A stretch of 64,000 bases of DNA from an uncultured Acidimicrobiaceae bacterium. GTDB taxonomy: Bacteria > Actinomycetota > Acidimicrobiia > Spongiisociales > ZC4RG35. Shown here piece after piece: positions 10,303 through 63,812 of this stretch (positions are counted from its first letter, which is position 1; every line of letters starts with the position of its first letter). The DNA lies in the NCBI GenBank assembly GCA_964558575.1, contig CAZLEQ010000011.1:1910-65909 (forward strand), given 5' to 3'. Below the pieces are notes generated by a model. The model saw nothing but the letters and a program-made list of their open reading frames with translations. It did no database searches and was not told the DNA's origin. A program made the translations under genes and the position numbers.

Positions 10303-10306
<4 letters not shown>
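10055..10306 (+). CDS. 83-aa protein of unknown function, translationally coupled between the alpha and beta genes
   Basis: ATGA overlaps at both ends (10055-10058 and 10303-10306). Third positions are strongly G/C-biased like the flanking genes. No signal peptide, TM segment or Cys motif. No family recognised. Confidence 0.55.
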
Positions 10307-11525
<1,219 letters not shown>

Positions 11526-11529
<4 letters not shown>

Positions 11530-12269: not shown

Positions 12270-13267
12270 CCCTCTTCAGGTCGAAGGTGGCGCTGTTCTC
12301 GGCCCTGGTCTTGGTCGCGGTTCTCCTGCGAGTCGCCGATGCCAATCCGGCGATGGCCCAGAACCAGTCGATCGGAGCCTGGGGTGTCACCACGGCACCG
12401 CCGATGGATGGCTCCGCTCCCGAGTGGCAGTCGATTCTGCCGGTCTTTCTGCCGACTACGTCTCAGCAGGTGGAACTACCGATGGGAGGTGGCGCCATCG
12501 AACGCCTCGCGGTCAGGGCAGTGCATCACGACGAGCGTCTGTACGTGATGTTGGAGTGGTCGGATCGGACACCAGACCGGGACTCCGATCGTCACGAGGT
12601 GTTCAGTGATGCCGCCGCCATCCAATTCCCCGCGGAAGCGGGGAGTGAAGTGCCCGCCATCTGCATGGGTCAGGCAGACCAGGCGGTCAACATATGGCAT
12701 TGGCGCGCCGACCAGCAGAATGGTCCCCCCACCCTGTCCGAGTACGGCTACGTCGACTCGTATCCATCGACCGACGACCTCTACTTCACGGCCCGGGAGG
12801 CAGGCAATCCGCTAGCCCGGGTCGAAGCTCGAACCGGGATGAGCAATCTCGTCGCCGGGGGTTTCGGGACCCTGGAGATAACCGACCAGGGTGGACTCGA
12901 TGGCCACGCGGTCCACAAGGACGGCCGTTGGATGGTGGTGTTCGCGAGACCGTTCACCGCCACCGGCGACATGCAGCCCACGATCGGCGGGGGCCCCATC
13001 GACGTCGCGTTCGCGGTGTGGGATGGCAGCAGGGGAGAGCGAGACGGCATCAAGTCGGTGTCGACGTTCACCCAGCTTCGGGTGACCCCCGAAGACCCAC
13101 CTCGCCGACCGGTAGCCGCCACCGACGATTGGCCGGGTTACACGCCGTCGAACCCGATGCTCGTCGTCTCATACGGCTTCATCGTCCTGTTGACCCTGGG
13201 AACTCTGGTGGTCTGGCGGTACATGCGGAGGAGTGAAAGGGGCTCAGATGCCGAGAGCAGCGTCTAA
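12266..13267 (+). CDS. heme-b (gamma) subunit, ethylbenzene-dehydrogenase-gamma (EB_dh) type, with signal peptide and C-terminal TM anchor
   Basis: GTGA overlap with the chaperone stop. Signal-like VALFSALVLVAVLLRVADANPAMA. EB_dh core LYVMLEWSD...AAIQFP...ICMGQADQAVNIWHWRAD...FAVWDGSRGERDGIKSVS with candidate Met/Lys heme ligands. C-terminal helix MLVVSYGFIVLLTLGTLVVW. Confidence 0.8.
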   Translation: MTLFRSKVALFSALVLVAVLLRVADANPAMAQNQSIGAWGVTTAPPMDGSAPEWQSILPVFLPTTSQQVELPMGGGAIERLAVRAVHHDERLYVMLEWSDRTPDRDSDRHEVFSDAAAIQFPAEAGSEVPAICMGQADQAVNIWHWRADQQNGPPTLSEYGYVDSYPSTDDLYFTAREAGNPLARVEARTGMSNLVAGGFGTLEITDQGGLDGHAVHKDGRWMVVFARPFTATGDMQPTIGGGPIDVAFAVWDGSRGERDGIKSVSTFTQLRVTPEDPPRRPVAATDDWPGYTPSNPMLVVSYGFIVLLTLGTLVVWRYMRRSERGSDAESSV

Positions 13268-14252
13268 CTCGATCCTGCGGCTCCTGTCCGGATGGCTGGG
13301 GCTCGTCGTCATCGTCGAGTTGGTGCTCTTGCGAACCGGTACCCGGACTCTCATCCACATCCCGGGACTGGGCCGCTTTGACACTTCTATAGGGATGCTC
13401 AGCGAAGCGGGGCGTCTCGCCTACTACCTGGCAGTGGTCTTGGTCGTCGCCGTGCTGGTGTATCTCGGTCGCATGACCTGGACCGGTGGGACCCTGGCGG
13501 GGAGGGTGCTCGCCGGCGTGGTTTCGGTCTTCCTCGTCACCTCGCTCCTGGGGCGAATCGGCGTGGCCACCCCCTCGGTGGTGGCTTGGATGTCGGTGAT
13601 GGTGTTGGTCGCGGTGTTGGCCCTCACCTGGCGTGGGGCGCAGAGCGTTCCGGTCGCCGCGTTCGTCGCCGCCTCGGTCTCGGCTTCCTGGAGCATCCTC
13701 GGACAGGGGCTCGGACCTGGGATCTCAGGGCCTACCGTCGATTTCGCGGTCGTTCTCGCCGAGGGGCTTCTGCTCCTGGCACTGGCGACCACGCCCCTTG
13801 TCGTTCTTGGGAAGGTGAAGACCTCGGCCGTGGTCGCGGGAGCGGCCGTCTTCGTCCTGGTCGGGGCAGGATTCTGGGCTGGCGGCTCGACCCTGTCCAT
13901 CTTGACCCTGTGGAACCTCGGGGTTCCCGGCTGGTTCTCGCCGATCGCCTACGGGTTTGCCTTCGGCGGCCTGGTGATCGCTCTGGGGTCGGCCCTGGCT
14001 GACCGCCGGGTCACGATCGCAGCCGGTCTGCTGCTGTTGATCGCCGGGGGCGTAGGGCCAATCAGCACCTATCAGACGGCGCTCGCCTTGACCGCGGTGA
14101 TCCTCCTTGGGCTCGCCGTGGGCACGACCGGCCCGGCGTCGGTTCCCGAGGTCGACGATGATGAAACAGCCTTCGGGGCGGGAGGTGGCGACCTCATCCC
14201 AGTCGGTATGACTGATCCGAGTCCGGTCGCACCACGACCAACCGGTGACTGA
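13233..14252 (+). CDS. polytopic membrane protein of unknown function, last gene of the molybdoenzyme operon
   Basis: About 9-10 hydrophobic segments. Overlaps the gamma 3' end (alternative ATG 13248). Only one His in the whole protein. Acidic, Pro-rich tail. No family recognised. Confidence 0.6.
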   Translation: MKGAQMPRAASNSILRLLSGWLGLVVIVELVLLRTGTRTLIHIPGLGRFDTSIGMLSEAGRLAYYLAVVLVVAVLVYLGRMTWTGGTLAGRVLAGVVSVFLVTSLLGRIGVATPSVVAWMSVMVLVAVLALTWRGAQSVPVAAFVAASVSASWSILGQGLGPGISGPTVDFAVVLAEGLLLLALATTPLVVLGKVKTSAVVAGAAVFVLVGAGFWAGGSTLSILTLWNLGVPGWFSPIAYGFAFGGLVIALGSALADRRVTIAAGLLLLIAGGVGPISTYQTALALTAVILLGLAVGTTGPASVPEVDDDETAFGAGGGDLIPVGMTDPSPVAPRPTGD

Positions 14253-43328: not shown

Positions 43329-44111
43329 TCACTCGAGCCCGTGGAGCTCCAGGGCGAGGTGGCTGGTCATGCCCCCGTCGACGGCGATGTTGCTCCCACG
43401 GACCCAACCCGACTCGTCTGAGAGGAGAAAGGCCACCACCGGCGCGATCTCGTCGGGTCGGCCCGGGCGGTCCATCAGCTCCATGATCCGCTTGGCCCGC
43501 CCCAGGGTGTCGATGAAGTCGGCCAACGCCGGGGTGTCGATCGGCCCCGGGCTCACCGAGTTGACCCTGATGCCTCGGTCCCGCCATCGCCACCGGTTCC
43601 TCATCGTCCAGGTGATCACGAACTCCTTCGAGAAAAAGTAGCTGGCCCCTTCCTCGAGGAGCCCGTGCTCTGCGGCGAAACGCTCCAGGGCCCCTGTCTC
43701 GAAGGGTATCTCGTCGAAGGCGCGCAGGGCATCGACCCGTTTGGCCCAACCGCTGCCGGCCGACGAGGCGATGTTCACGATCGAGGCGTCGTCGGCGAGG
43801 CGGGGAGCCAGAGCGACGGTGAGGCGCTCCAATCCCTTCGCATTGAGGGCGAGCACCGACGCTGGTGGCCCCGACGGAGGGACCCCGGCGACATTGCACA
43901 ACCCGTGGGCCCCGGGGGCGATTCGTTCCACCAGGCCGTCGATCTGGGCCGGGTCGCTGAGATCGACCTCGAAGTGCTCGTCGGCGAGATTGGACGGTTT
44001 GATGTCGACACCCACGATCGTGGCCCCTCGGTCCTTCAGATATCGCGCCGTGGCGAGCCCGATACCGGAGGCAACGCCGGTCACCACCACGCGTCTGCCG
44101 GTGAGATCCAT
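43329..44111 (-). CDS. SDR family oxidoreductase (3-alpha-HSD / coniferyl-alcohol dehydrogenase-like)
   Basis: VVVTGVASGIGLATARYL cofactor loop, NIASSAG and IRVNSVSPGPIDTP. Confidence 0.85.
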   Translation of the reverse strand: MDLTGRRVVVTGVASGIGLATARYLKDRGATIVGVDIKPSNLADEHFEVDLSDPAQIDGLVERIAPGAHGLCNVAGVPPSGPPASVLALNAKGLERLTVALAPRLADDASIVNIASSAGSGWAKRVDALRAFDEIPFETGALERFAAEHGLLEEGASYFFSKEFVITWTMRNRWRWRDRGIRVNSVSPGPIDTPALADFIDTLGRAKRIMELMDRPGRPDEIAPVVAFLLSDESGWVRGSNIAVDGGMTSHLALELHGLE

Positions 44112-44162
44112 GGCGCCACGCTACCGGGGCCGTGCCCGCGTCGCCCTCTATCGTGCGGGGTC

Positions 44163-46400
44163 GTGCGTGCCAGAACACAGCCGACCCGGCGTCGTCTCGA
44201 GGATCGCCGCTTCATCACCGGTGCGGCCAGTTATGTGTCCGACCTCATCGGGGCCGACGACCTCCACGCCCACTTCTATCGCAGCCCCGTCGCCCACGGT
44301 GTGCTCGGCTCGGTCGACATCGATGCCGCCTCGGACATGCCCGGGGTGGCAGCGATTCACACCGGTGCCGACATCGGCGTGCCCCCGATCGGCGGCGGAG
44401 CTCATGTCGGGGAGGCTCGATTCGAGCGTCCGCTGCTCGCCACCGGCAAAGTCCGCTATGTCGGCGAGCCGATCGCCGTGGTCCTCGCCGAGACCAAGAC
44501 ACAGGCCGTGGATGCCGCCGGGACGATCTGGGCCGATCTCGAGCCCCTCGGTGCGGTCATCGACCCGGGGAGCGCCGCCCACCACGCGATGTCCCTCTTC
44601 GATGAGGGCAACGTGGCTTTCCGTGGCCGCGTCGGCTCGGAGACGTCGGGTCGCGAGTACCCCCTGTCCGCCACCGTGACTACGCACAACCAGCGTCTCG
44701 CCCCTGCCTCGATAGAGGGTCTGGCGATCCGTGCCGCGCCCACCCAAACCGATGGTCTGGTGGTCCACTGCGGTCATCAGGCGCCACACCGCCTCCGCAC
44801 CCAACTCGCTCTTCAGCTGGGACTGGACCCTTCCCGGGTCCGGGTCGTGGTTCCCGACGTGGGTGGGGCCTTTGGAATGAAGGGGGGACTGTTCCCCGAA
44901 TACTTGGTAGTGGTTGCCGCTGCCATCCGACACCTCCGGCCGGTGGTTTGGATCGAGGAGCGTCGCGAGCACTTCCAGAGTGGAACCCACGGGCGGGGAC
45001 AGACCCACACGGTCACCTTGGAAGGCGAGGCCGATGGCCTTATCAGGAGGGCGAACATCGAGATCGTCGCCGACCTGGGCGCCTATCCCCACACCGGGTC
45101 GCACATCCCTCATCTCTCCAGCTTCGTTGCGCAGGGTCTCTACGACATCGAGGAGGTAACCGTCGACATCACCGGCGTGGTCACCAACCTCGCCCCCACC
45201 GGGTCCTATCGGGGGGCGGGCCGGCCCGAGGCCGCCTTCGCCTTGGAGCGAGCGGTGGACGAGTTTGCCGTGGTGGCGGGTCTCGACCCGGCGGCGGTGA
45301 GGAAGATGAACTTCGTCGCCCCCGACCAGCTGCCCTATCCCAACCGGACTGGTGCCACCTACGACAGTGGGGACTACGCCAGGGCGCTCGACATCGCCCT
45401 CGACATGGTGGACATCGAGTCGGTCCGCGCCGAACAGCAGCGACGCCGCCGTGATGGAGGCGATCCGATCGGTGTGGGCATCGGTGCCTTCGTGGAGAGA
45501 GCCGGCGGTGCCACCGGTACCGGAGAGTTCGGCCACGTCAGGATCGGAGCCGACGGAGGGGTGGAGGTCATGACCGGGTCCACCTCGGCAGGGCAGGGCC
45601 ACGAGACGGTGTGGCCGCAACTACTGGCTCCGATGTTCGGGATCGCCCCAGACGAAGTCGTCGTGATGTCCGGGGACACCGGCCTGGTCGCCGAGGGGGT
45701 GGGGACCTTCGCCAGCAGATCCGCCCAGCTCACCGGGTCGGCTCTGGTGCGGATGGCGGAGGTTGTCATCAGCGAGATGAAACAGAGGGCCGCCGCCGTG
45801 CTCGAGGCCAGCGTCGAGGATCTGGTCCTCGCCGAAGGCCGGGTACACGTGGCCGGAGACCCACAGTCAGGTGTCGGTTTCGCCGACCTCTCCGGCGCGG
45901 AGAGCTCGGAGATGTTCGTTCCCGAGTCACAGACGTTCCCCTTCGGTGTCCACGTCGCGGTGGTCGAGGTGTCCATGGCCACCGGGGAGGTGGCCATCGA
46001 GAGATACGTGGCGGTCGACGACTGCGGCAACGTGCTCAACCCGATGATCGTCCATGGCCAGGTGGTGGGGTCGCTGGCCCAGGGTTACGGACAGGCGGTG
46101 CTCGAGGGCATCGTTTACTCCGAGAACGGCGATCCGGTGACTGCCAGCTTCATGGACTATCTGGTCCCGTCGGCGATGGACACCCCGACATTCACCCTCG
46201 GGCGCACCTACAGTCCGGCGCCGTCGAACCCATTGGGGGTGAAGGGCACCGGTGAGGCCGGTTGTATCGGGGCTCCGCCGGCGATCGTCAACGCCGCCGT
46301 CGACGCACTCCGGCCATACGGGGTCACCGATCTGCAGATGCCCCTACGGCCCCACCGGGTCTGGGAGGCGGTGAGGAACGCCTCAGGCCACCGCGGCTGA
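44163..46400 (+). CDS. xanthine dehydrogenase/CoxL family molybdopterin-binding subunit (form II CoxL-like)
   Basis: RRLEDRRFITGAASYVSDL...YRSPVAHG and an active-site loop PTGSYRGAGRPE (form II AYRGAGR type rather than form I AYxCSFR). GTG 44163. Confidence 0.85.
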   Translation: MRARTQPTRRRLEDRRFITGAASYVSDLIGADDLHAHFYRSPVAHGVLGSVDIDAASDMPGVAAIHTGADIGVPPIGGGAHVGEARFERPLLATGKVRYVGEPIAVVLAETKTQAVDAAGTIWADLEPLGAVIDPGSAAHHAMSLFDEGNVAFRGRVGSETSGREYPLSATVTTHNQRLAPASIEGLAIRAAPTQTDGLVVHCGHQAPHRLRTQLALQLGLDPSRVRVVVPDVGGAFGMKGGLFPEYLVVVAAAIRHLRPVVWIEERREHFQSGTHGRGQTHTVTLEGEADGLIRRANIEIVADLGAYPHTGSHIPHLSSFVAQGLYDIEEVTVDITGVVTNLAPTGSYRGAGRPEAAFALERAVDEFAVVAGLDPAAVRKMNFVAPDQLPYPNRTGATYDSGDYARALDIALDMVDIESVRAEQQRRRRDGGDPIGVGIGAFVERAGGATGTGEFGHVRIGADGGVEVMTGSTSAGQGHETVWPQLLAPMFGIAPDEVVVMSGDTGLVAEGVGTFASRSAQLTGSALVRMAEVVISEMKQRAAAVLEASVEDLVLAEGRVHVAGDPQSGVGFADLSGAESSEMFVPESQTFPFGVHVAVVEVSMATGEVAIERYVAVDDCGNVLNPMIVHGQVVGSLAQGYGQAVLEGIVYSENGDPVTASFMDYLVPSAMDTPTFTLGRTYSPAPSNPLGVKGTGEAGCIGAPPAIVNAAVDALRPYGVTDLQMPLRPHRVWEAVRNASGHRG

Positions 46401-51208: not shown

Positions 51209-51246
51209 TCGTGCCCGGGTGCTCGTCTACATTGAGGATCGATCGT

Positions 51247-51612
51247 ATGGCCAGAGCACGCAGGGACTACGACGACATCCCGGGGACGTATGTCTTCGAT
51301 GGGGAGCGGCACCGGATGGGTTACCGGCTCAACATGATGTGCATGAGTCTGAACGATCCGGCCAACCGGGAGGAGTTCAAGACCGACGAGGCCGCCTATT
51401 GCGACCGGCACGGGATCACTCCCGAGCAGAAGCAGGGGGTGCTGGAACGTAACTGGCTCGAGCTACTCCGGCTCGGGGGCAACATCTACTACATCTACAA
51501 GATCGCCATCATCGACGGTCTCTCGTTCCAACACGTCGGCGGGGTGATGTCGGGGATGACCGAGGCGGAGTTCAAACAGATGATGCTCGACGGGGGACGC
51601 AACAGTGGCTGA
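51247..51612 (+). CDS. ligA: protocatechuate 4,5-dioxygenase alpha subunit
   Basis: IPGTYVFDGERHRMGYRLNMMCMSLNDPANREEFKTDEAAYCDRHGITPEQKQGVLERNW is a LigA-type small subunit. Confidence 0.85.
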   Translation: MARARRDYDDIPGTYVFDGERHRMGYRLNMMCMSLNDPANREEFKTDEAAYCDRHGITPEQKQGVLERNWLELLRLGGNIYYIYKIAIIDGLSFQHVGGVMSGMTEAEFKQMMLDGGRNSG

Positions 51613-52462
51613 GGTGGCATACGGGGTGGCCACCTCCCACACGCCTTCGATCGGGGTGGCGATAGACAACGACCGTGAGGAAGAGCCCTACTGGGCACCG
51701 CTCTTCCAGGGCTATGAGGCCGGCCGCAAGTGGATGGCGGACGCCGAGCCCGACGTGATCATCCTCGCCTACAACGATCACGCCTCGGCCTTCGACCTCG
51801 ACCTGATCCCGACCTTCGCCCTGGGGGTCGCCGATGAGTTCCCCATCGCCGACGAAGGCTACGGGCCCCGTGACATACCCACCGTCGAAGGCCATTCCGA
51901 GCTGGCCTGGCACCTGGCGGAGCACCTGATCCTCGACGGCTTCGACATGACGATCTGCAATCACATGCCGGTCGACCACGGGCTGACGGTGCCGCTGTCG
52001 ATCATGTACGGCAAGCCGAAGAGATGGCCGGCCAAGGTGATACCCCTGGCGGTCAATGTGATCCAGTACCCACCCCCCACCGGAAAACGGTGCTGGGACC
52101 TCGGCCAGACGATCCGCCGCATCGTCCACGACTTCGATGATGACCTGAAGGTGGCCGTGTTCGGGACCGGAGGGATGTCCCACCAATTGCAGGGAGAGCG
52201 GGCGGGTTGGGTCAACACCCCGTTTGACAAGGAGTTCCTCGACAAGCTGGTCGACGACCCGGTCGCCCTCACCAGGATCTCCCATACCCGGCTCCTCTCC
52301 GACGCCGGGTCCGAGGGCATCGAGCTGGTGATGTGGCTGATCATGCGAGGGGCGTTGGGACGGAATGTGCGGGAGGTGCATCGTCACTATCACGTCCCGG
52401 CATCGAACACCGCCGCCGGGCTGATGATCCTGGAATCCGAAGAGCACACTGCCTTCCTGTAG
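51605..52462 (+). CDS. ligB: protocatechuate 4,5-dioxygenase beta subunit (class III extradiol dioxygenase)
   Basis: GVATSHTPSIG...IILAYNDHASAF...VDHGLTVPL... has the LigB catalytic pattern. Overlaps the ligA stop. Confidence 0.9.
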   Translation: MAEVAYGVATSHTPSIGVAIDNDREEEPYWAPLFQGYEAGRKWMADAEPDVIILAYNDHASAFDLDLIPTFALGVADEFPIADEGYGPRDIPTVEGHSELAWHLAEHLILDGFDMTICNHMPVDHGLTVPLSIMYGKPKRWPAKVIPLAVNVIQYPPPTGKRCWDLGQTIRRIVHDFDDDLKVAVFGTGGMSHQLQGERAGWVNTPFDKEFLDKLVDDPVALTRISHTRLLSDAGSEGIELVMWLIMRGALGRNVREVHRHYHVPASNTAAGLMILESEEHTAFL

Positions 52463-53524
52463 ATGGCGGACATGGACCACGGCATCCGCTGCATGATCAT
52501 GCGAGGAGGCACCTCGAAGGGCGCCTTCTTCGTCGCCAGCGACCTCCCGTCCGATGCCTCCGAACGGGACCGTCTCCTGCTGCAGATCATGGGGACTCCC
52601 GATCCTCGCCAGATCGACGGTCTCGGAGGGGCGCACCCTCTCACCAGCAAGGTGGCGATCGCATCTTCCTCAGAGGAAGACGACGTCGACGTCGAATATC
52701 TGTTCCTGCAGGTCGGGGTGGACGAGGCGTTCGTCACCGACCGTCAGAACTGCGGCAACCTCTTGGCCGCGATCGGCCCCTTCGCCCTCGAACGTGGGCT
52801 CGTCTACATGCCCAACGGAGAGGCCTCGGTGCGGATCCGCATGCGTAACACCGGAGGGTTGGCGGTGGCTCGCTTCCGCGTCCAGGACGGCGTCCCGAAC
52901 TACTCGGGCAACACGGCCATCTCCGGGGTCCCCGGGACCTCGGGTCAGGTAGGCATCGACTTCGAGGGGATCGCCGGAGGCACCACGGGCTCGCTGCTGC
53001 CCACTGGAAACCCGGTCGACGAAGTCGCCGGGGTGGAGGCGACGCTGGTCGACAACGGGATGCCGGTGGTGGTGATGCGAGCTGACGCCCTGGGAGTGAC
53101 CGGCTACGAGGACTGTCTCGAGCTGGAGTCGAACCAGGAGCTGCGCTCACGTCTCGAGGAGATCCGGCTCGAGGCCGGCCGGCTCATGGGTCTCGGTGAT
53201 GTCTCCGACATCACCATCCCCAAGCTGACGATGGTGGCGCCCCCCAAAGCCGGAGGCAGCGTCTCGACCCGAAGCTTCATCCCGCACCGATGCCATGACG
53301 CCATCGGCGTCCTCGGCGCCGTCTCCGTCGCCACCGCCTGTCTCCTCGAAGACACCCCGGCCAACGCCGTGTCCGAGATCGACTCGTCACTGGTGACCCT
53401 GGAGCATCCCGTCGGGACCTTCGAGGCCCGGGTCGAGCTCGAAGGCCGGGAGGTACGGCGCGCCGGGATCATCCGCACCGCCCGCAAGCTGATGGACGGG
53501 ACCGTCTACCCCCGGTCCTACTGA
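52463..53524 (+). CDS. galD: 4-oxalomesaconate tautomerase (PrpF family)
   Basis: IRCMIMRGGTSKGAFF...DGLGGAHPLTSKVAI...NCGNLLAAIGPFALERGLV is a PrpF/GalD/LigU-type pattern. Confidence 0.8.
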   Translation: MADMDHGIRCMIMRGGTSKGAFFVASDLPSDASERDRLLLQIMGTPDPRQIDGLGGAHPLTSKVAIASSSEEDDVDVEYLFLQVGVDEAFVTDRQNCGNLLAAIGPFALERGLVYMPNGEASVRIRMRNTGGLAVARFRVQDGVPNYSGNTAISGVPGTSGQVGIDFEGIAGGTTGSLLPTGNPVDEVAGVEATLVDNGMPVVVMRADALGVTGYEDCLELESNQELRSRLEEIRLEAGRLMGLGDVSDITIPKLTMVAPPKAGGSVSTRSFIPHRCHDAIGVLGAVSVATACLLEDTPANAVSEIDSSLVTLEHPVGTFEARVELEGREVRRAGIIRTARKLMDGTVYPRSY

Positions 53525-54406
53525 GTGTCGACTCCCACCATCCCGGCCCCGAAGCGGGACTCCCGCCGACCCACCCGCTTCACTCCGCCTGCGAACGCCT
53601 GTGACGCCCACTGTCACATCTTCGGGCCGGCTCAGCGTTTTCCTTTCGCCCCGGACCGCACCTACACCCCGCCCGACTCGGGTCTCGAGGATCTCGAGGA
53701 GCTGCAACGGCGTCTCGGGCTCACCCGGGCAGTGTTCGTCCAGGCCTCCTGTCACGGCACCGACAACAGGGCCATGCTCGATGCCCTTGGGAGGGGCCAG
53801 GGTCGCTATGCGGGAGTTGCCATGATCGACGACACGCACACCGATGAAGCCCTGGTGGAGATGCATCGTCACGGCGTGCGCGGGATCAGGTTCAACTTCG
53901 TCGCCCACCTCGGCGGTGCGCCCGACCTGTCGCGATTCCGGGGGATGGTGGACCGAGTCGCCCCATTGGGGTGGCATCTGGTACTGCACTTCGACGCCGG
54001 AGACCTCTCCCGCTACTCCGAGTTGCTCGCCGGTCTCCCGGTTCCATTCATCATCGACCACATGGCCCGGATCCAGGCGGCGGACGGTATCGACCAGGAG
54101 CCCTTTGGCCGCCTGCTCGAGTTGCTCGAGACGAATTCGAGGGCGTGGGTGAAGATCTCCGGTGCGGAGCGGATCACCACAAGCGGAGAGCCCCCATACG
54201 ACGACGTGGCTCCCTTCGCCCTGGCCCTCGTCGGGGTAGCCCCGGATCGCGTTCTCTGGGGCACCGACTGGCCCCACCCCAACGTGCGGCACATGCCGGA
54301 CGATGGTGACCTCGTCGACCTGCTCGCTGACTTCGTTCCCGACCCGACCAGCCGTCACCGGGTCCTGGTCGACAACCCGACCGTTCTCTACGACTTCTCA
54401 TCGTGA
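53525..54406 (+). CDS. ligI: 2-pyrone-4,6-dicarboxylate hydrolase (amidohydrolase_2)
   Basis: ACDAHCHIFGP...RAVFVQASCHG...GVRGIRFN...IDHMAR...WGTDWPHPN is a LigI-like pattern. Confidence 0.8.
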   Translation: MSTPTIPAPKRDSRRPTRFTPPANACDAHCHIFGPAQRFPFAPDRTYTPPDSGLEDLEELQRRLGLTRAVFVQASCHGTDNRAMLDALGRGQGRYAGVAMIDDTHTDEALVEMHRHGVRGIRFNFVAHLGGAPDLSRFRGMVDRVAPLGWHLVLHFDAGDLSRYSELLAGLPVPFIIDHMARIQAADGIDQEPFGRLLELLETNSRAWVKISGAERITTSGEPPYDDVAPFALALVGVAPDRVLWGTDWPHPNVRHMPDDGDLVDLLADFVPDPTSRHRVLVDNPTVLYDFSS

Positions 54407-55956
54407 GCGAGGACTTTCCGGTCGTGATCGTCGGGGGAGGCCCGGTGGGGATGGGATTCGCCGTCGAGCTCGGAGAGCGCGGGGTGGAGTGTCTCGTGGT
54501 GGAGCGGCATCGGGTTTCACAACCGATCCCGAAGGGCCAGAACCTGACCCAGCGGACCATGGAGCACTTCGCCTTCTGGGGGATCGACCAGCAGATTCGT
54601 GAGGCGCGGAAGATGCCGGAGGGATACCCCAACTCTGGGGTGACCGCCTACCGGGATCTGATGGGTGAATACTCCTACCCCTGGTGGCAGCGGAGCATGG
54701 TGGCCGACTACTACTCACAGCCCAACGAGCGGATCCCTCAATACGAGACCGAACGCGTTCTGAGAGAGAAGGCGGCGACCCTGTCTTCGGTGGAGATTCG
54801 CTATGGCTGGTCGGGTGAGGGCCTCGACGGCAACGCCGTTCGCACCGTGTCCCGTGACTCCGGAGAGGAGAAGGTCGTCGCCGGGGAGTTCATTATCGGA
54901 TGCGACGGAAGTCACTCCACGATCAGGGAGGCGGCCGGGATCTCGGAGATCATGACGGACCACGAACGACGCATGGTGCTGCTCGTCTTTCGCTCGGCGG
55001 GCCTGCATGAGTTGGTCTCCCGATTCGGGGAGGTCGCCTTCTTCAACATCATGGATCCGACCCTCGACGGCTATTGGAGATTCCTGGGGAGGGTCGACGG
55101 TGAGGGCGAGTTCTTCTTCCACGCTCCGGTCCCTGACGATGCCACCCGTGAAGACTTCGACTTCGCCGGCCTCCTCCACGACTCGATGGGAGCGGAGTTC
55201 GAGGTCGAGTTCGGCTACGTCGGGTTCTGGGACCTGCGCTTCGCCGTGGCCGACCCCTACCGCAAGGGCCCGGTCTTCGTCGCCGGGGATGCCGCCCACA
55301 GCCATCCTCCCTATGGGGGGTATGGGATCAACACCGGTTTCGAGGATGTCCGCAACTTGGGCTGGAAGTTGGCAGCGTGGTTCGAAGGGTGGGGGAGCGA
55401 GCGACTGCTCGACTCGTACGGCGCCGAGCGGCAACCGGTCTTCCAGTCGACCGCGGCGGACTTCATCGAGAAGATGATCGACTCCCAGCGTCAGTTTCTC
55501 ACCATTCACGATCCGGCAGTCAACCTCGCCGATTTCGAGCGTGCCTGGGAAGAGCGCAAGCTCAGGTCGTCGCTGGGGGTGTCGGACTTCGAGCCTCACT
55601 ACGAGGGGTCTCCGATCGTGTGGGCCACGGGCACCCCGTCGGCGGTGGGCTCCCACGAATTCACCGCCCGGCCCGGCCATCACCTCCCACCGCGGGAGGA
55701 TGTCTTCGAGTGTCTCGGCCCTGGTTTCACCCTGGTGTCGGTGGGAGGGCCGGTAGAGTCGGTCGGTTCGTTCCGCACCGCCGCCGACTCATTGGGGGTG
55801 CCAATCGAGGTGGTGGCGAGAGCCCGAGGTGGCGAGGCCGACGGGTACGGATTCCGTTTCGGCCTGGTCCGTCCCGACCACTTCGTCAGCTGGGTGGGGG
55901 ACGAGGCGGACCCGGCGTTGGCACGCGAGGTGTTGGCCCGGTCGGTCGGCCGGTGA
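54403..55956 (+). CDS. FAD-dependent aromatic-ring monooxygenase (FAD_binding_3, PheA/TfdB/MhpA class)
   Basis: VVIVGGGPVGMGFAVELGERG, CDGSHSTIR and VFVAGDAAHSHPPYGGYGINTGFEDVRNLGWKL. GTGA overlap with ligI. Confidence 0.85.
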   Translation: MSEDFPVVIVGGGPVGMGFAVELGERGVECLVVERHRVSQPIPKGQNLTQRTMEHFAFWGIDQQIREARKMPEGYPNSGVTAYRDLMGEYSYPWWQRSMVADYYSQPNERIPQYETERVLREKAATLSSVEIRYGWSGEGLDGNAVRTVSRDSGEEKVVAGEFIIGCDGSHSTIREAAGISEIMTDHERRMVLLVFRSAGLHELVSRFGEVAFFNIMDPTLDGYWRFLGRVDGEGEFFFHAPVPDDATREDFDFAGLLHDSMGAEFEVEFGYVGFWDLRFAVADPYRKGPVFVAGDAAHSHPPYGGYGINTGFEDVRNLGWKLAAWFEGWGSERLLDSYGAERQPVFQSTAADFIEKMIDSQRQFLTIHDPAVNLADFERAWEERKLRSSLGVSDFEPHYEGSPIVWATGTPSAVGSHEFTARPGHHLPPREDVFECLGPGFTLVSVGGPVESVGSFRTAADSLGVPIEVVARARGGEADGYGFRFGLVRPDHFVSWVGDEADPALAREVLARSVGR

Positions 55957-55968
55957 CCGCCCGCCGCC

Positions 55969-56937
55969 TCAGTCCTGGTCGCTACCAGCCCAACTCAACA
56001 CTCGAAGCGCCCGGAGGGTGTTCCAGTGGCTCGGCTCGCCTTCGGCGCCGTCGATCTCGAAATGGACGTCGCCGCGATGGATGTTCTGCCTTGGCCAGCG
56101 GCCATCTTCACCCCGGTTGTGTTCGACGAGGCCGATCGCCTCATCGATTCTCTCGTCGGGGCCGACGCCTGTCTTCCGCAAGTAGTCGAGCCCACGTAGC
56201 ACGTCGTAGTGCCACCAGGGAGGGAACGAGAACCGGGTCCACAGCGGGTCGATCACCTCGCCGTCCGAGATGCGGCGGAGTAATCGTCGTTCCAACAAAT
56301 ACTCCTCACCACGGGATCGGGCATTGCCGACAGCGGAGGCCGGACCAGATCTGTCCTCAAACTCCAACAGTCCCTCGAGAACCGAGATCGTGGTGTGAAA
56401 CGACCCTCGTGTCGACCCGGACTCCTGCTCACAATTCCATCCTCCGTCGTCCATCTGCTCTTCGAGGAGACGATCGACGATGCCGGAGACGTCCTCGCCG
56501 AAGTATGAGCCGATGGCGACGGTCAGCCCGTTGATACAGGGCTCCACCTCTCCTTCGAAGAAGGGTTGACCGGCGTGTTCCCACCGACTGTTCTCTCTGA
56601 CCATGGTCACCGCGTGTCGCGCCTCGGGGCTGTCGGGTGGAAGACCGAATAGCCGCAGCAAGGAGAGCGACCAGGAGGTGGCAGTCCACGGCTGGGCCAC
56701 CATATGGCCGTCTGGCCCCCTCTCGATGCTTGTCCACGAGAACGAGGCCGGGAAGTGGGTGCCTTCGGCCCACTGGCCGTCCTCACCTTGCAGATCGAGC
56801 AGCCGGGCTCCCCAGCCCTCGGTGGCCACGCGGGCGCGTTCGGCGGTCACCGTTTCTTTCGGTTGCTGGGTGAGGTCTGCCATCACCTGCCAACGAATGG
56901 CCGGGTCCGATTCGAGCAACCATCCCTCGATGTTCAT
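55969..56937 (-). CDS. prenyltransferase / squalene-oxidase-repeat (alpha-alpha toroid) protein
   Basis: Repeated QxxDGGW-type units (LQGEDGQWAEG, EQMDDGGWNCE, NRGEDGRWP). ATG 56937 (MNIEGWLL...); ATG 56976 is possible. Confidence 0.6.
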   Translation of the reverse strand: MNIEGWLLESDPAIRWQVMADLTQQPKETVTAERARVATEGWGARLLDLQGEDGQWAEGTHFPASFSWTSIERGPDGHMVAQPWTATSWSLSLLRLFGLPPDSPEARHAVTMVRENSRWEHAGQPFFEGEVEPCINGLTVAIGSYFGEDVSGIVDRLLEEQMDDGGWNCEQESGSTRGSFHTTISVLEGLLEFEDRSGPASAVGNARSRGEEYLLERRLLRRISDGEVIDPLWTRFSFPPWWHYDVLRGLDYLRKTGVGPDERIDEAIGLVEHNRGEDGRWPRQNIHRGDVHFEIDGAEGEPSHWNTLRALRVLSWAGSDQD

Positions 56938-57041
56938 GGTCCGGCGCGTCTGGTCATCACCTGGCCATTCTGACATCAGTCCCGGACATCCGGTGACCGG
57001 GAATCGAAGGAAGTGTCGAAGGTGCGCTAGGGCAGCAGCCC

Positions 57042-57329
57042 TCAGTTGTCGCTGGACTGGATGAGCAGCAGGATTACCCCACCCAACACGGTGAGACCGA
57101 GTGCGAGCCAAATCAGGTTGCGTCGACGACGGGCTCCGGTCACATCGTCTGCCCAGTGCTTGGTCTTGTCCGCCATCCTCCGGGCACCCTCGGCTATCGC
57201 CTCGGAACCCTCAGCAAGCTTCTCGGAGCCGATTGCAGCTCCTTTCACCACTGGTGCGACCACGTCGTCCTTGACCTTCTCTCCGATATCCTTGGCGTAA
57301 CTGGACTTTGAGTTGGGCATTGAATCCAT
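57042..57329 (-). CDS. small tail-anchored membrane protein, unknown function
   Basis: Ala/Lys/Glu-rich helical N-part and a C-terminal TM segment LIWLALGLTVLGGVILLLI. Confidence 0.45.
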   Translation of the reverse strand: MDSMPNSKSSYAKDIGEKVKDDVVAPVVKGAAIGSEKLAEGSEAIAEGARRMADKTKHWADDVTGARRRRNLIWLALGLTVLGGVILLLIQSSDN

Positions 57330-57958: not shown

Positions 57959-58249
57959 ATGAGCCAGAAAACTGATCTGCCCGATATTCAGTCTTCCAAG
58001 GTCACGGAGCGAATCTACGCCACCGCCTTCAAGTTGCTCGAGCAGCATCCAGAGGGTCTGCGCTGGACGGACCTGCGAACCAAGATCGAGGAGACAGATC
58101 CCGACTTCCACCCGAAAACGGTCAACGGATGTGTCTGGAAACTCGTCGAGAGATATCCCGACAGGGTCTACAAACCATCCAAGGGGCTCTTCCGTTTGCT
58201 GGAACATGAGTCCGACACCAGCACTCAGATGTCTGCCCCCGACCATTGA
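57959..58249 (+). CDS. hypothetical small protein, winged-helix-like
   Basis: AAAGGATGGGG before ATG 57959. RIYATAFKLLEQHPEGLRWTDLRTKIEE...VNGCVWKL resembles Mrr_N-like winged helices. Lies in the lower-GC patch. Weak call. Confidence 0.4.
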   Translation: MSQKTDLPDIQSSKVTERIYATAFKLLEQHPEGLRWTDLRTKIEETDPDFHPKTVNGCVWKLVERYPDRVYKPSKGLFRLLEHESDTSTQMSAPDH

Positions 58250-58308
58250 CACGATCCCAGACTTGCCGAACTGCGTGGGATCGAGTGGGCTAGCTTTGTG
58301 ACCTGCCC

Positions 58309-58575
58309 ATGCATGACATCGAGATCACCTATTGCGTTCCGTGAAACTATCTAGACCGCGCCGTGAGCGCGGCCGATGACATCCTCTCCCGATATCAGCA
58401 CATCGTGCGATCTCTCTCGCTCAGCACAGGCTCCAAGGGCGTGTTCGATGTCAGGGTGGATGGGAACCTGATCTACTCCAAAGCCGAGACTGGAAGACAT
58501 GCCGAACCTGGCGAGGTGCTCGACCACTTCGTGGAGAAGTACGGTCAAGGAGTGACGCTCTACGGCCAGGAATAG
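58309..58575 (+). CDS. SelW/Rdx-family protein, candidate selenoprotein (in-frame TGA 58342-58344 read as Sec)
   Basis: ATG 58309 is in frame with track ORF 58363..58575. The read-through product is MHDIEITYCVPUNYLDRAVSAADDIL...GVFDVRVDGNLIYSKAETGRHAEPGEV, with the Rdx CxxU redox motif at the canonical N-terminal position. A hairpin follows the TGA. Confidence 0.6.
58354..58374 (+). promoter_or_regulatory. candidate bacterial SECIS hairpin
   Basis: Stem CCGCGC (58356-61) / GCGCGG (58367-72) with loop CGUGA. The stem starts 11 nt after the UGA and the apical loop lies 18-22 nt after it. Confidence 0.45.
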
Positions 58576-58691
58576 TCCTGCTGGGAGCTCCCTGAGGTCG
58601 CGGCATTCATGCCGGGTCGTCGTCCGGGCACCGAGACAGGCAGGGTCGAGCTGGTGATGGTGAGCGGGTGTCCGTTCGCGTATAGCGTGAT

Positions 58692-59237
58692 GTGATGCCT
58701 CGCTTTGTAGTGACGGGCGCCCCGGGAACCGGCAAGACGAGCGTCATCGAGCGGTTGGGGGATCGCTTCCCTACGGTCGGTGAGCCGGCCCGGAAGTTGA
58801 TAGCTGAGCACCGATCAGAGACAGGGGAGACCACACTTGATGATCGTCCGGAGCTGTTCGTGGAGAGACTGGCAGCACGGTCAATCGATGACTTCGAGGC
58901 TGTCTCTGGAACCGATGCTGTCTTCTTCGATAGAGGTCTGCCCGACTGCGTCGCTTATGCAGCAGCCTATGGGGTCGATCCGCGACCGATCCTCGAAAAG
59001 GCGGCCGCTTTCCGCTACCAGCCTCCGATCTTCATCGCACCACCTTGGAAGGAGATCTACACGACCGACAGCCTCAGACGTGCCTCCTTTGCGCAGATCC
59101 AGGAGTTCGATGTCCACCTGCGTTGGGCGTACACGCAACTCGGTTACGAGATGATGGAACTCCCGAAAGGGCCACCTCGAGAGAGAGCAGCATTCATCGT
59201 CGAGCAAACGGGGCTGGCCAGCAGTCACTTCGCATGA
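58692..59237 (+). CDS. AAA_28-type P-loop ATPase (NadR-kinase-like)
   Basis: Walker A in RFVVTGAPGTGKTS, Walker B-like VFFDRG; 181 aa. Confidence 0.7.
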   Translation: MMPRFVVTGAPGTGKTSVIERLGDRFPTVGEPARKLIAEHRSETGETTLDDRPELFVERLAARSIDDFEAVSGTDAVFFDRGLPDCVAYAAAYGVDPRPILEKAAAFRYQPPIFIAPPWKEIYTTDSLRRASFAQIQEFDVHLRWAYTQLGYEMMELPKGPPRERAAFIVEQTGLASSHFA

Positions 59238-59319: not shown

Positions 59320-60136
59320 ATGGAAACCGCTGATCGGCCGATGGTCGCGTTCGTCACCGGGGCAAGCCGCGGTATTGACCGCCTGCTCGCTTTGTCTCTT
59401 GCCGATGCTGGTGCAACCGTCGCTGGTTTTGCCAGGTCGAGCGCAGCGTTGGACCGGCTCGCAGAGGAGGCTGGCACTGGATCGAGGCTCCATGCGAGAT
59501 CTGTGGATGTGACGAGTCCCGTCGATGTGCGGTCTGCCTTTGAGCGGGCGACGATCGAGGTTGGTCCTCCCGACTTGTTGATCACGTGTGCCGGCGGCGC
59601 CTCCGCGCTCGGTCCTATCTCGACCATTGATCCGGACGACTGGTGGCGCGATGTGACGACAGACCTGCGTGGCACCATGCTGTGTGTCCAGGCCGTCTTG
59701 GATCCGATGCTGGGGGCGGGTTCGGGCCACATCATCACGGTCTACGGCAACCTCGGGGACCACGGAGGAGAGCACGTTTCGGCATTCGCTGCTGGAAAGG
59801 CGGGTCGCCAGGTTTACTGAGACTCTGGCCAACGAACTCGGTGACAGCGGTGTCGTCGCCCTCACCATCCATCCTGGTTTTGTCCGTACTCCCATGACCG
59901 AGCGGCTGGCATGGAGTGTAGAGGGACGGCTTTGGCTCCCGGACTTCGAGTCCCATGCCGAGCAGCATTGGGGAGATGGGGCTTCAGCCATCGCCTTGGT
60001 GAAACGGATAGTCGCCGGTGAAGCCGATGAACTCGCCGGGCGGGTTGTGCATGCCGGTGACGACTTCGAACAGCTGAGCCAGCGCGTCCGCACCGACGAG
60101 GACTTGCGGCGTCTTCGGCTTCGTTTCGACGGCTGA
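59320..60136 (+). pseudogene. SDR family oxidoreductase disrupted by a frameshift
   Basis: ORF 59320..59820 (VAFVTGASRGID...SAFAAGKAG) and ORF 59669..60136 (...VARFTETLANELGDSGVVALTIHPGFVRTPMT) join into one SDR if one G is removed from the G-run near 59799-59804. The catalytic YxxxK reads FAAGK. Confidence 0.6.
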
Positions 60137-60631
60137 CAATCCCGGCTGGCTGATCACCGACAGACCGGGCTCTTCCGGGCCCGGGTGTCGATGGAACTGG
60201 GCGGCCGAGCGCGCCCATAACGTGCGTACGAGCGGTTCGTCCGGTGAGCCCGAGGCGGAGAGGGATGGTTGTGGCCTCTTCTTGATCAGGTGACGTAGTT
60301 CGGCCTCGACCTGTTGCATCAGCGCCATAGCGGTGATCGATTTGCTCAACGAGGCGATGAACAGCGGGGTGGCGGCGGTCATCGCAATCCCAGGGCTGGC
60401 CTCACCCAGCTCCAAAGCGAGCACGATCTCGCCGTCGTGGACGATCGCCGTGGCCAGGCCGGGCACGCCGACCTCGGACAAGCGCATCTCGAGATACCTC
60501 TCGACCTCATCGACAGCCGAATCCGTGAAAGGAGGGAGGGAGTCCTGTTGGGCAGCGCCAGAAGCGGAGAATGCGATGAGGCCGGCCAGGTGAGGGAGAG
60601 ATCGAAGCCAGTGATGGGCAGGTGAGATCAC
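59984..60631 (-). pseudogene. truncated beta-lactamase / serine-hydrolase-family remnant
   Basis: Only the first 110 or so codons (about 60300-60631) look like the family (GLATAIVHDGEIV..., SxxK as FIASLSKSITAMAL). The rest is not protein-like and overlaps the SDR remnant. Confidence 0.5.
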
Positions 60632-60902: not shown

Positions 60903-63530
60903 CTACGCCGGGGAGACTGGGACCTCGATGCCAACCGGGGAGTCGGTGACACGGGCCGCCGGCTTCTTCCAACCAATCTCGACCCCATCCGCTCTGGTAC
61001 CCCAGTCTTGTTTCCGCAGCGTCAACAAGGCCCATAGACGCAATGGGGTCAACAACAAGATGTGAATGATCCCGTACAAAGGTGAGAGCAGGAACGTCAA
61101 GAACGACACATCGACATGTCGTGCCGACCTGACGTACGACATCAACGTTATGAAGCCAAGGTAGTAATAGCCGACAAACTGGCCGGCCATGATCGGTCGG
61201 ACCACGATTGCCATCATGATCGCTGCCGAGAAGAACAGCCATAACCCGAGTTCCGAAACGGCCAGGGCGGTGACTCTGGCTCTCTTCTGATGGAATATCG
61301 CCCACACGGTCTCCCTGAAGAACGACCGGTTCCACCGAAGCTGCTGCCTGAGGAAGTGGCTGAGTCTGTCAGGTGCCAATGTCATCGCCTTGGCGGTCTC
61401 TTGGAAGACGACACGTCCATGCCTCAAGGCGTAATTGGTCAGTCTCCTGTCGTCCCCGTAAGAGACCTCGACCCCCAAGAACCGTTGTGACACGTAGTCA
61501 TCTAGGTAGCGTCGAACAATGCTGGCTCGATACAAGGTGATGATTCCAGTGGCGCAGAGCATCGAGTCCAGAACCGAGTACGCCGCTCGCTCGTAGGTGA
61601 ATGCGTTGGAGTACCTCAGATCGATCAAACGCGTCAGCAGGTTCTTCTTCGCGTTGAGGGCACGAACGTTCCCACAGACCGCACTCACTTCGGAGTCGAA
61701 GAAGGATCGCAAACCCTCATCGATGCATGCACGATCGAGGACCGTATCGGAATCCACAGTCACGAACACGTCTGCCTTGGATCGAGCGAACGCCCACGCC
61801 TGAGCGTGCCGTTTCCCCCGGTTCTCTCTAAACCTGTGCACCCGGCCGCCGTGGTTCTTCAGGTGCCGCGCGGCAATAGCGATACACGTAGCATCATCAC
61901 TCCCGTCGTCCACCACCCATATCTCCTGAGGGATCCTGGTCTGGTTCAGAAGGGATCGCAGGCACTCCCTGAACACCAGAGGATCCTCGTTATAGACAGG
62001 AACGAATACGGCGACGCTCATATCGGGTGCCGGGTCGAACCAGGGCTCATAACGCGAAGCCAGAACCATCTTGAGCAACAAGTAGGAGATGGCAAGCATC
62101 CCGTAAACCCCGATGACGATGACACCCGCACCTGCTTTGGCGTTCCACCAGAACACCAAGGCAATCGCGATGAGGAAGAAGGGCCACGCCCTTGCCTGTC
62201 TTCTGTCCCTGCCAAGTTTGACAACCTCTCCCGCGGTCTCCACGGCCTGCCGCTTGGTCTCCTTCTGGGCCTCACGACTGTCTGTTCGGTACCCCGGGCC
62301 AAACGTGTCCGTCCAGATCACCGTGGAGAACAGCCAGAGCGCGCATCCCAGTAGGAGCATCGGCGACAGTCGGGAGATCAATAGATACGCTCTCTCGAAG
62401 TCACCCAGCCAGACGCCGACAAGAGCTCCGAGGGGCAGGCCCGCCCATCCGATGGCCCGGGCAGCCGATATCACTCTTCCCAACATCGCCTCCCCCGCAT
62501 AGACCTGACGGATGGTGACGAGAGGGACGTTCATCACCGAGATGCCCGCCATGAAGAGGGCGAGAAGCGCCATGGCCCGTGCGCCGTAGGTACTCACCGT
62601 CACGATCAGTAGGGAGACACCCGACATCGCCAGTCCCGCGATCATCGCTCGTCCGAGTCCGATTGCTCTGGACACAAGGGGGGCGACCAGAGCACCGATG
62701 ACTCCGCCCGCTCCCATGAAGAAGAGCAGTACGGCTATCTGGAATCCACTCTCGGCTTCGAGCACCACGATGGCCAGCACCACAAAGGTTGCTTCGATGA
62801 ACCCGATCACGAAGTTGGGGACGGCTGCGGTGACGGTGGAGATGCGCAGCCTGGGCTCGTTCCAGAGATGATGTATCCCGGTCTTGAACCCGGCGAGAAA
62901 CGACCCGCGCTCGGCGGCGGCGTCAGCGTGGCGGGCAACCCGGCCAACGTTCCTCAGAGACCACGCAGAGATCAGGAAGACGACGCCGTTGATGTAGAGG
63001 CCGACTGCGGGGCCGGCGAAGATGAGGGCTGTCACCCCTCCGACCAAGGGACCGAGGGCGGTGGTGACCTGGACGGAGACGGCAACGAAAGAGTTCGCGT
63101 CGGACAACCGGTCTTTGGGAACCAGCGAGGGGATCATTGTGTAGACGGCGGAGTCGAACAGCGTCGTAAAGGAGCCGATCACGAACGCCATGGCGAATAC
63201 GGTGCCGATCCCGTAGGAACCGACTTCGGCGGCCAGGTAGAACAAGGCGCACGCCCGGAGCAGGTTGGTGACGATCATCACCAGGCGGAGATTGATTCTG
63301 TCGAGCAGGATTCCCCCGAGCAGCCCGATGATCAGTGCGGGTGCCGTCTGCAGGGCGTAGCTGATGGCGAAGTCGAGGGTTCTCTCCGATCCGGCTGCGG
63401 CCTGGATGTGCATGACCAGGAGCGGGACTGTTATCACGGCGAAGTACGCGCCTATGAGGCTGGTCGTCTGAGCGATCCATAGCGCCATGTAGCGCGAGCC
63501 AAGGGACCGCATCGAGGCCAGAACGTGCAC
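60903..63530 (-). CDS. fusion protein: N-terminal MFS transporter (EntS/MFS_3-like) + C-terminal HasA/NodC-type processive GT2 glycan synthase
   Basis: One uninterrupted frame. GAAGGAG lies 8 nt before GTG 63530. The MFS half has about 12 TM segments. The GT2 half has VPVYNEDP, VVDDGSDD, GKRHAQAWAFARSKADVFVTVDSDT, NLLTRLIDLRYSNAF, GDDRRLTNYA, QQLRWNRSFFRE and FLLSPLYG...RKQDWGTR. GC is visibly lower than the window average. Confidence 0.8.
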   Translation of the reverse strand: MHVLASMRSLGSRYMALWIAQTTSLIGAYFAVITVPLLVMHIQAAAGSERTLDFAISYALQTAPALIIGLLGGILLDRINLRLVMIVTNLLRACALFYLAAEVGSYGIGTVFAMAFVIGSFTTLFDSAVYTMIPSLVPKDRLSDANSFVAVSVQVTTALGPLVGGVTALIFAGPAVGLYINGVVFLISAWSLRNVGRVARHADAAAERGSFLAGFKTGIHHLWNEPRLRISTVTAAVPNFVIGFIEATFVVLAIVVLEAESGFQIAVLLFFMGAGGVIGALVAPLVSRAIGLGRAMIAGLAMSGVSLLIVTVSTYGARAMALLALFMAGISVMNVPLVTIRQVYAGEAMLGRVISAARAIGWAGLPLGALVGVWLGDFERAYLLISRLSPMLLLGCALWLFSTVIWTDTFGPGYRTDSREAQKETKRQAVETAGEVVKLGRDRRQARAWPFFLIAIALVFWWNAKAGAGVIVIGVYGMLAISYLLLKMVLASRYEPWFDPAPDMSVAVFVPVYNEDPLVFRECLRSLLNQTRIPQEIWVVDDGSDDATCIAIAARHLKNHGGRVHRFRENRGKRHAQAWAFARSKADVFVTVDSDTVLDRACIDEGLRSFFDSEVSAVCGNVRALNAKKNLLTRLIDLRYSNAFTYERAAYSVLDSMLCATGIITLYRASIVRRYLDDYVSQRFLGVEVSYGDDRRLTNYALRHGRVVFQETAKAMTLAPDRLSHFLRQQLRWNRSFFRETVWAIFHQKRARVTALAVSELGLWLFFSAAIMMAIVVRPIMAGQFVGYYYLGFITLMSYVRSARHVDVSFLTFLLSPLYGIIHILLLTPLRLWALLTLRKQDWGTRADGVEIGWKKPAARVTDSPVGIEVPVSPA

Positions 63531-63812
63531 GGAGTTGTCTCCTTCTGTCCTACAAGTTCTTAGATTTCGGTCGCCTAGGCCGGATCTGGAGAGATTCCGC
63601 AAATCATTTCCGGATTTCGTAACCGAAGATTCTCAGGGCTTACGCCGTCCTGTCCGATGCTCGGCATGTAGCGAGGAGCACAACTCGAACGACTGTTTAT
63701 TGGGGGTCGAGCGGGTGACCTGTGTGGATCTCGGTTGCACGGAACAGACCAGGCCTATTTCGGTGGTTCCGACTGGTTTCGCTTATGCCGAGCGACGGTT
63801 CTGTTCGAATAG

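Follow-up and report, generated by a model that had tools for sequence, protein, structure and literature searches.

The 64-kb window, by which we mean the whole stretch of DNA analysed here, very probably carries an intact gene for an 88-residue Rdx (SelW-like) thiol-selenol oxidoreductase whose second redox residue would be selenocysteine (Sec), encoded by an in-frame UGA. Taken as a whole, this selenoprotein reading is strongly supported by comparison of the gene with its relatives. We infer that a 17-nt hairpin, 11 nt past the UGA, would act as a bacterial SECIS during translation, recruiting SelB-GTP-Sec-tRNA(Sec), and that the ribosome would then insert selenocysteine instead of terminating. 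The product would have a thioredoxin-like fold (beta1, a CxxU loop, alpha1, beta2-beta4, alpha2), in which Cys9 and Sec12 would form a reversible selenenylsulfide redox centre acting on a presumed substrate. Gene callers read the UGA as the end of a gene and begin again at a GUG in the hairpin loop, giving a protein of 70 aa that lacks beta1 and the active site.

The original prediction held that the reading frame is open back to ATG 58309 save for one TGA, and that the list of open reading frames starts the gene farther downstream. Direct reading of the sequence bears out both points: there is one in-frame TGA (58342-58344) in a frame that is otherwise open from ATG 58309 to the TAG at 58573-58575, and the listed gene runs from GTG 58363 to the TAG ending at 58575, a call of 70 aa. 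The coding sequence (58309-58575, forward strand) comprises 88 codons, with Sec12 counted, plus the TAG stop. In this frame no start codon lies between a TAG at 58291-58293 and ATG 58309. With the UGA read through, the product starts MHDIEITYCVP-U-NYLDRAVSAADDIL..., and over its 88 codons it reads MHDIEITYCVP-U-NYLDRAVSAADDILSRYQHIVRSL... The features of the locus, each with the evidence on which it was assigned, are as follows.

58309-58575, forward strand: full coding sequence of the predicted Rdx/SelW-like selenoprotein (reading frame, translation, PF10262, TIGR02174, and the PDB relatives 3DEX and 2FA8)
58309-58311, forward strand: probable true start codon, ATG (first start after the TAG; start codons of orthologues)
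58333-58344, forward strand: redox motif C9-V10-P11-U12, TGC GTT CCG TGA (alignment to the CxxC of Cys-form Rdx structures)
58342-58344, forward strand: in-frame UGA, predicted to be read as Sec12 (TGA in 54/54 and 62/62 orthologous loci)
58345-58355, forward strand: 11-nt spacer from the UGA to the hairpin (direct reading of the sequence)
58356-58372, forward strand: candidate SECIS-type hairpin with a 6-bp G+C stem and the pentaloop CGUGA (minimum free energy fold, covariation, four-fold sites)
58363-58365, forward strand: GTG in the hairpin loop, the codon of Val19, miscalled as a start (list of open reading frames, conservation of the loop, lengths of database proteins)

A start codon is conserved among the orthologues 10-14 codons upstream of the TGA, whether ATG, TTG or GTG, at the equivalent position or one to three codons farther upstream. 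Inspection of the sequence upstream of ATG 58309 revealed no clear Shine-Dalgarno sequence, and a promoter and terminator scan around the gene detected neither a sigma-70-type promoter nor an intrinsic terminator; for this lineage we regard the absence of such signals as neutral.

Assignment of the protein to the SelW/Rdx family, as originally proposed, is upheld by profile searches. With the TGA set to Cys, the 88-aa protein scores 64.8 bits against PF10262 (Rdx; cut-off 22.6), in a match that spans profile positions 2-69 of 74, and 49.8 bits against TIGR02174 (CXXU_selWTH; cut-off 34.2). Membership of the Campylobacter-type equivalog NF041051 was rejected, the score of 77.8 being below the cut-off of 88. 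The nearest structures in the PDB found by phmmer are SAV_2001 (3DEX, E = 5e-9) and Atu0228 (2FA8), both of them Cys-form bacterial Rdx proteins; the segment YCVPU is aligned with YCTQC of both, which places U opposite the second Cys of CxxC.

The fold was assessed on an orthologue, the Cys-form protein P0006, as a stand-in for the window protein, to which it is 66% identical; its AlphaFold model has a pLDDT of 91. In this model beta1 comprises residues 4-8, the CxxC loop residues 9-15 and alpha1 residues 16-33, followed by three further strands and a C-terminal helix. The 21 best matches in the PDB are all bacterial SelW-related proteins, with TM-scores of 0.57-0.67, and MIEN1 and mouse SelW rank next. 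Judged on P0006, the window protein is predicted to have the thioredoxin-like beta-alpha-beta-beta-beta-alpha fold, with CxxU in the loop between beta1 and alpha1 as the Rdx family requires. Both the family and the position of the motif are established by these comparisons of sequence and predicted structure, and the original placing of C-x-x-U at the Rdx redox centre after the first strand is borne out by the alignment as well as by the model. The 70-aa call, for its part, scores 35.9 bits against PF10262 and enters the profile at position 20; on the P0006 model it would begin inside alpha1, lacking beta1 and the redox centre, which agrees with the earlier assertion that without its 18 N-terminal residues the protein would lose its active site.

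The original prediction turned on whether orthologues carry TGA or TGC at the critical codon. Orthologue DNA was drawn from two collections by means of peptide patterns that left the codon uncovered and a query that carried Cys at that position. The codon is TGA in all 54 of the metagenomic loci that cover the site and in all 62 of the named-genome loci matched by the parser, with TAA or TAG in none of either set; two further named-genome loci, L128 and L131, show an in-frame stop in translation. These orthologues represent 99 distinct sequence contexts with 41-85% identity. Carriers of the TGA are mostly Acidimicrobiia (Acidimicrobiales, Ilumatobacteraceae, Microthrix and Aldehydirespiratoraceae), the Acidimicrobiales genomes OZ245048.1 and OZ244195.1 being named among complete carriers of the gene, and beyond that class they include Caldilineaceae, a Phycisphaeraceae MAG and Pseudomonadales. 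The UGA codon corresponds to a Cys position in homologues, namely TGC in P0006 and P0064 and Cys in the solved structures.

Substitution patterns around the codon point in the same direction. In codons -8 to -1 before the TGA, the entropy is 0.55, 0.42 and 1.02 at codon positions 1, 2 and 3 respectively, so that these upstream codons vary mainly at their third positions, which in such an alignment is the pattern of coding sequence; a coding pattern in codon-position entropy is seen on both sides of the TGA. The prediction had staked itself on the upstream 54 nt being conserved as coding, and the bias of substitutions to third positions, together with the retention of a start codon 10-14 codons upstream, favours it. 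Conservation of the TGA and coding constraint on either side of it can be regarded as established at the level of aligned sequences.

Among the best 120 protein clusters, six are full-length, and the DNA of the codon was read for five. P0006 and P0064 have TGC at the Sec codon and are genuine Cys forms. P0062 (locus L136) has the protein motif "CVPW", and its DNA codon is TGA: the Trp is the result of code-4 translation by the gene caller on a short contig. By analogy with P0062, the "CVPW" of P0073 is likewise probably a TGA translated under code 4. In P0061 and P0111 the codon specifies Leu (TTA) and Gly (GGA) respectively, each differing from TGA by a single nucleotide; the contigs that carry them measure 573-609 nt, and these may be rare real variants or errors. 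What true decay of an Rdx gene looks like is illustrated by L073 (JBAPYG010000324.1, 3590-3850), a second Rdx copy that has lost one codon and carries, besides the TGA, a further stop; the MAG in question possesses an intact copy too, L069.

The hairpin 3' of the UGA was found exactly where it had been predicted, with a 5' arm at 58356-58361 (ccgcgc), the loop at 58362-58366 (cgtga) and a 3' arm at 58367-58372 (gcgcgg). The 6-bp all-GC stem and the loop CGUGA, 17 nt in all, start 11 nt after the UGA and are contained in the minimum free energy fold. Taken alone, the window hairpin is no more stable than shuffled sequence (z = -0.25), as is to be expected because the genome has 64% G+C, and its significance comes from comparative data only, not from the fold of a single sequence.

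Those comparative data lend the predicted hairpin support from covariation. In a gap-free alignment of 40 distinct sequences, the six proposed pairs are paired in 94.6% of cases, a figure that falls to 16-65% in controls with slid 3' partners, and compensatory double changes occur in three of the six. Pair 18-34, for example, is C-G in 28 sequences, U-A in six and A-U in one. Ten double-change cells were observed, where 2.0 were expected, and the covariation score was reached by none of 500 shuffles. Because kinship between the sequences can inflate such counts, a second test was added that is internal to the gene. In 93 distinct orthologues, entropy averages 0.44 bits at the four-fold third positions within the hairpin (Arg+5, Ala+6, Val+7 and Ala+9), against 1.50 bits (minimum 0.97) for 24 other four-fold codons of the gene (Mann-Whitney p = 4.9e-5). 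Facing G, the Arg+5 codon ends in C (66) or U (11); facing C, that of Ala+9 ends in G in 76/82; and that of the loop Val ends in G in 80/82 sequences. The bases permitted at these sites are those that pairing needs, and constraint on the protein cannot give such a pattern. Selection on the hairpin at the level of RNA is established on this comparative footing.

The spacer is 10-12 nt long in 74 of 87 distinct orthologue hairpins, and an identical G-U-containing loop is borne by 32 distinct stems. More distant members have stems of their own (CCAUC/GAUGG in L136, GCUGC/GCGGC in Caldilineaceae, and CCGCCA/UGGCGG or GGCGGUCA/UGGCUGCC in Phycisphaeraceae and Pseudomonadales) and retain, at a distance of 12-16 nt from the UGA, a small G-U apical loop, CGUGC or GUC. 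Loss of the hairpin had been expected in Cys forms, yet P0006 and P0064, with TGC, both preserve it; it does not, then, occur with TGA alone, and a recent conversion of Sec to Cys would be compatible with this.

A bacterial SECIS has been described as a stem-loop that follows the UGA directly and has G in its small apical loop (PMC1088965). With its 11-nt spacer, its loop CGUGA, its covariation and its constrained four-fold sites, the hairpin fits this description. The covariance-model check proposed with the original prediction did not add to the case: Rfam models applied to the whole window at the gathering threshold, and to 58200-58700 at E <= 10, returned chance miRNA matches and no SECIS.

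In a control for hairpin frequency, a second apparent hairpin about 103 nt after the UGA was scored in 86/103 sequences. In the window it lies at about 58445-58462, where the codons of F-D-V-x-V-D form a near-palindrome, TCGAC...GTCGA. This candidate was rejected, since its position shifts and its synonymous sites are unconstrained; it is a by-product of D-V-x-V-D, because GAC and GTC are reverse complements. The control is confounded in this way, and the case for the SECIS-type hairpin therefore rests on covariation and on four-fold-site constraint. More generally, the near-palindrome is a caution for tests of hairpin frequency inside coding sequence.

If the UGA is translated, it might in principle be decoded as something other than selenocysteine, through hairpin-stimulated near-cognate read-through (as Trp or Cys) or through lineage-specific recoding. 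In general, read-through of a stop codon can be stimulated by a hairpin on its 3' side, and Sec machinery was observed neither in the window nor in the flanks of orthologues. Searches of the window by tblastn with E. coli SelA, SelB and SelD, by Pfam and by ARAGORN found no selA, selB, selD or tRNA-Sec, the one tRNA present being for Gln; Sec machinery was similarly missing from 57 metagenomic loci and from 73 loci with flanks of up to 10 kb (1.02 Mb). This absence is uninformative, because linkage to the selenoprotein gene is not required. A reassigned genetic code can be ruled out, because TGA is an ordinary terminator in this genome: it ends 37/47 predicted genes of the window and 10/13 of those confirmed by Pfam. 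Nor did the window yield a second gene with an in-frame TGA and a coding signal on both sides, 18/18 matches being gene ends or noise from the opposite strand. Against non-Sec decoding, the site is the catalytic Cys/Sec of a family from which many Sec forms are on record (PMC1088965, PMC2398784), where Trp at the redox Cys would inactivate the motif; the geometry of the hairpin and its small G-containing apical loop fit a bacterial SECIS (PMC1088965); and at least one order of Acidimicrobiia carries the full Sec machinery (bioRxiv 10.64898/2026.04.03.716425). We accordingly give non-Sec decoding only a slim chance, and take selenocysteine as the likely reading of the codon.

The expectation that standard gene callers would truncate the gene was amply confirmed. 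A protein search returned 623 homologues, whose lengths were examined in the best 120 clusters; 114 of these 120 are only 63-74 aa long, starting at the loop GTG or a few codons away. Many of the short homologues among the best 120 come from Acidimicrobiia MAGs, and some of the 63-74-aa stubs are annotated "Rdx family protein" in NCBI MAGs. They end up at about 70 aa because a caller that resumes past the UGA meets the loop's conserved GUG as its first start codon, and this start is similarly placed in almost all orthologues because the loop is nearly invariant. In the wider family, clustering at 50% gave 488 representatives, and by a count from the table about 37 of the best 150 are equally truncated at the N-terminus. 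Correct annotation is the main practical value of the finding: the miscall is systematic, and it has a specific and easily fixed cause.

The same uniformity could be turned round, to argue that the 70-aa ORF with its GTG start is a real or additional product, that the upstream 54 nt are a leader or uORF, and that the hairpin functions in initiation or attenuation. The GUG of the loop is indeed nearly invariant and is chosen by every gene caller, and the fragment still scores above the Pfam cut-off (35.9 bits). Yet the upstream codons are under constraint at the protein level and encode beta1 and the CxxC/U motif, so a 70-aa protein would start inside alpha1 without the strand leading from edge to core and without the redox centre. 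Its start codon, beside a 6-bp G+C stem and with no Shine-Dalgarno sequence upstream, would be a poor site of initiation, and in other phyla the loop has GUC, which is not a start codon. We consider this explanation marginally less probable even than non-Sec decoding of the UGA. Fainter still is the prospect of UGA recoding without SelA, SelB and tRNA-Sec, or of a loop GUG that doubles as a contact for SelB and as an internal start, giving the 70-aa form when selenium is scarce. The 88-residue selenoprotein remains by far the most probable product of the locus.

Four independent SRA assemblies encode exactly this 70-aa product, next to identical neighbours, and the exact gene is present in the samples SRR16547335, SRR16547339, SRR9906329 and SRR9906330. 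The gene is flanked on one side by a GNAT acetyltransferase and two small unknown ORFs, and on the other by an AAA_28 P-loop protein. In DASTOM01 (MAG GCA_035762545.1), which has the TGA form, the neighbours differ: a PNPOx-like gene precedes the Rdx gene and a BNR-repeat gene follows it. The surroundings therefore do not form a conserved operon, and the Rdx gene is probably monocistronic. The vicinity does contain decayed genes, as had been pointed out. At 59320-60136 (forward strand) an SDR gene is split, ORF 59320-59820 matching adh_short positions 2-155 and ORF 59669-60136 positions 156-190; the frameshift, near 59800, is not a sequencing error, because the 166-aa call recurs in four independent assemblies. 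A beta-lactamase-family ORF at 59984-60631 (reverse strand) matches profile positions 4-71 of 329, the S-x-x-K region included, and is probably a gene remnant, identical in four assemblies.

That the Rdx gene is itself a pseudogene, dead or truncated since a TGC or TGT codon for Cys decayed to TGA, might be suggested by the SDR split over two frames nearby, by the fragmentary beta-lactamase-family ORF, by the degraded second copy L073 (extra stop, deletion) known in one MAG and by the existence of TGC forms, but this is the least credible of the explanations and is refuted by the conservation of TGA at precisely this codon in orthologues of several phyla, recovered independently (54/54 and 62/62), and by purifying selection on both sides of it, since decay would be private to one lineage and accompanied by further lesions, as in L073. 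The Cys-to-TGA mutation entertained as an alternative in the original prediction is thereby excluded, and the intact selenoprotein gene is retained.

Elsewhere in the window, a type II DMSO-reductase-family cluster at 6594-14252 (forward strand) encodes a 1154-aa molybdopterin subunit with the Tat motif RRQFIK, a 460-aa 4Fe-4S subunit, a 404-aa EB_dh haem subunit and a 339-aa ORF without a Pfam match, possibly a chaperone. The type II DMSO-reductase group includes nitrate, selenate, chlorate, DMS and ethylbenzene enzymes. An aromatic ring-cleavage cluster at 51211-55956 (forward strand) houses LigA and LigB extradiol dioxygenase subunits, PrpF, an Amidohydro_2 protein and an FAD-dependent aromatic hydroxylase; upstream of it are a xanthine-dehydrogenase-family molybdenum enzyme (43665-46400) and a GntR/FCD regulator. 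At 55969-57111 (reverse strand) there is a 380-aa ORF with repeated (D/E)GxW motifs and no Pfam match at E <= 0.001, whose repeats presumably resemble the alpha-alpha-toroid repeats of prenyltransferases or terpene cyclases. An 899-aa fusion protein encoded at 60903-63602 (reverse strand) joins an N-terminal MFS transporter to a C-terminal family-2 glycosyltransferase (chitin/hyaluronan synthase-like).

Bacterial SelW-like selenoproteins with a CxxU motif were described in 2005, and across the Sargasso Sea and GOS collections they form the most abundant prokaryotic selenoprotein family, with 48 genes in the Sargasso Sea and, in GOS, 427 Sec forms that stand against 56 Cys forms (PMC1088965, PMC2398784). 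An early survey counted the Actinobacteria with the phyla rich in selenoproteins (PMC1794560). Within the Acidimicrobiia, use of selenocysteine has so far been reported solely for the Actinomarinales, where selA, selB, selC and selD are present in 84/84 complete Actinomarina genomes, with a divergent SelB and about five predicted selenoproteins per genome, and where Rfam SECIS models failed too (bioRxiv 10.64898/2026.04.03.716425). The present clade shares with the marine SelW-like selenoproteins the domain, the CxxU after beta1, a length of about 80-90 residues and a UGA followed by a small G-loop stem-loop, and in both the Sec forms outnumber the Cys forms. It is set apart from them, as they have been described in print, by its place in the Acidimicrobiia, high-G+C Actinomycetota. 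Its hairpin is its own, with a 6-bp G+C stem, the pentaloop CGUGA and an 11-nt spacer, and the GUG of that loop leads to the uniform 70-aa miscall.

The Cys-form Rdx proteins of known structure (3DEX from Streptomyces avermitilis, 2FA8 from Agrobacterium, 2OBK, 2OKA, 2P0G and 2OJL) share the fold, with TM-scores of 0.62-0.67 to the P0006 model. Their redox motif is equally placed, but it is CxxC (TGC/TGT) instead of CxxU, and they are longer (about 100-107 residues, with an extended C-terminus) and 23-35% identical.

The minimal SECIS of E. coli fdhF, from the work of Boeck and of Engelberg-Kulka, is reportedly a 17-nt upper stem-loop 11 nt past the UGA with G-U in the loop. If so, it has in common with the present hairpin its location inside the reading frame immediately past the UGA, the 11-nt spacer, the length of 17 nt and the loop GU, whereas the sequences of stem and loop differ (CGUGA here, GGUC-type there) and the bulged U is absent here. 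Mammalian selenoprotein W (2NPB) and MIEN1 (2LJK) belong to the same Rdx fold family and have CxxU/CxxC in the same position, but eukaryotic SelW relies on a 3'-UTR SECIS with SBP2 and eEFSec, and the structural similarity is weaker (TM about 0.5).

Possession of the gene marks out a wide range of Acidimicrobiia MAGs, and the organism from which the window comes, as probable users of selenocysteine. The roughly 100 distinct sequences amount to a lineage-specific SECIS alignment that could seed a covariance model, Rfam having none that detects this hairpin. Set beside the systems above, the locus is an additional and systematically misannotated Acidimicrobiia clade of the known SelW-like family, and not a new mechanism or a new family.
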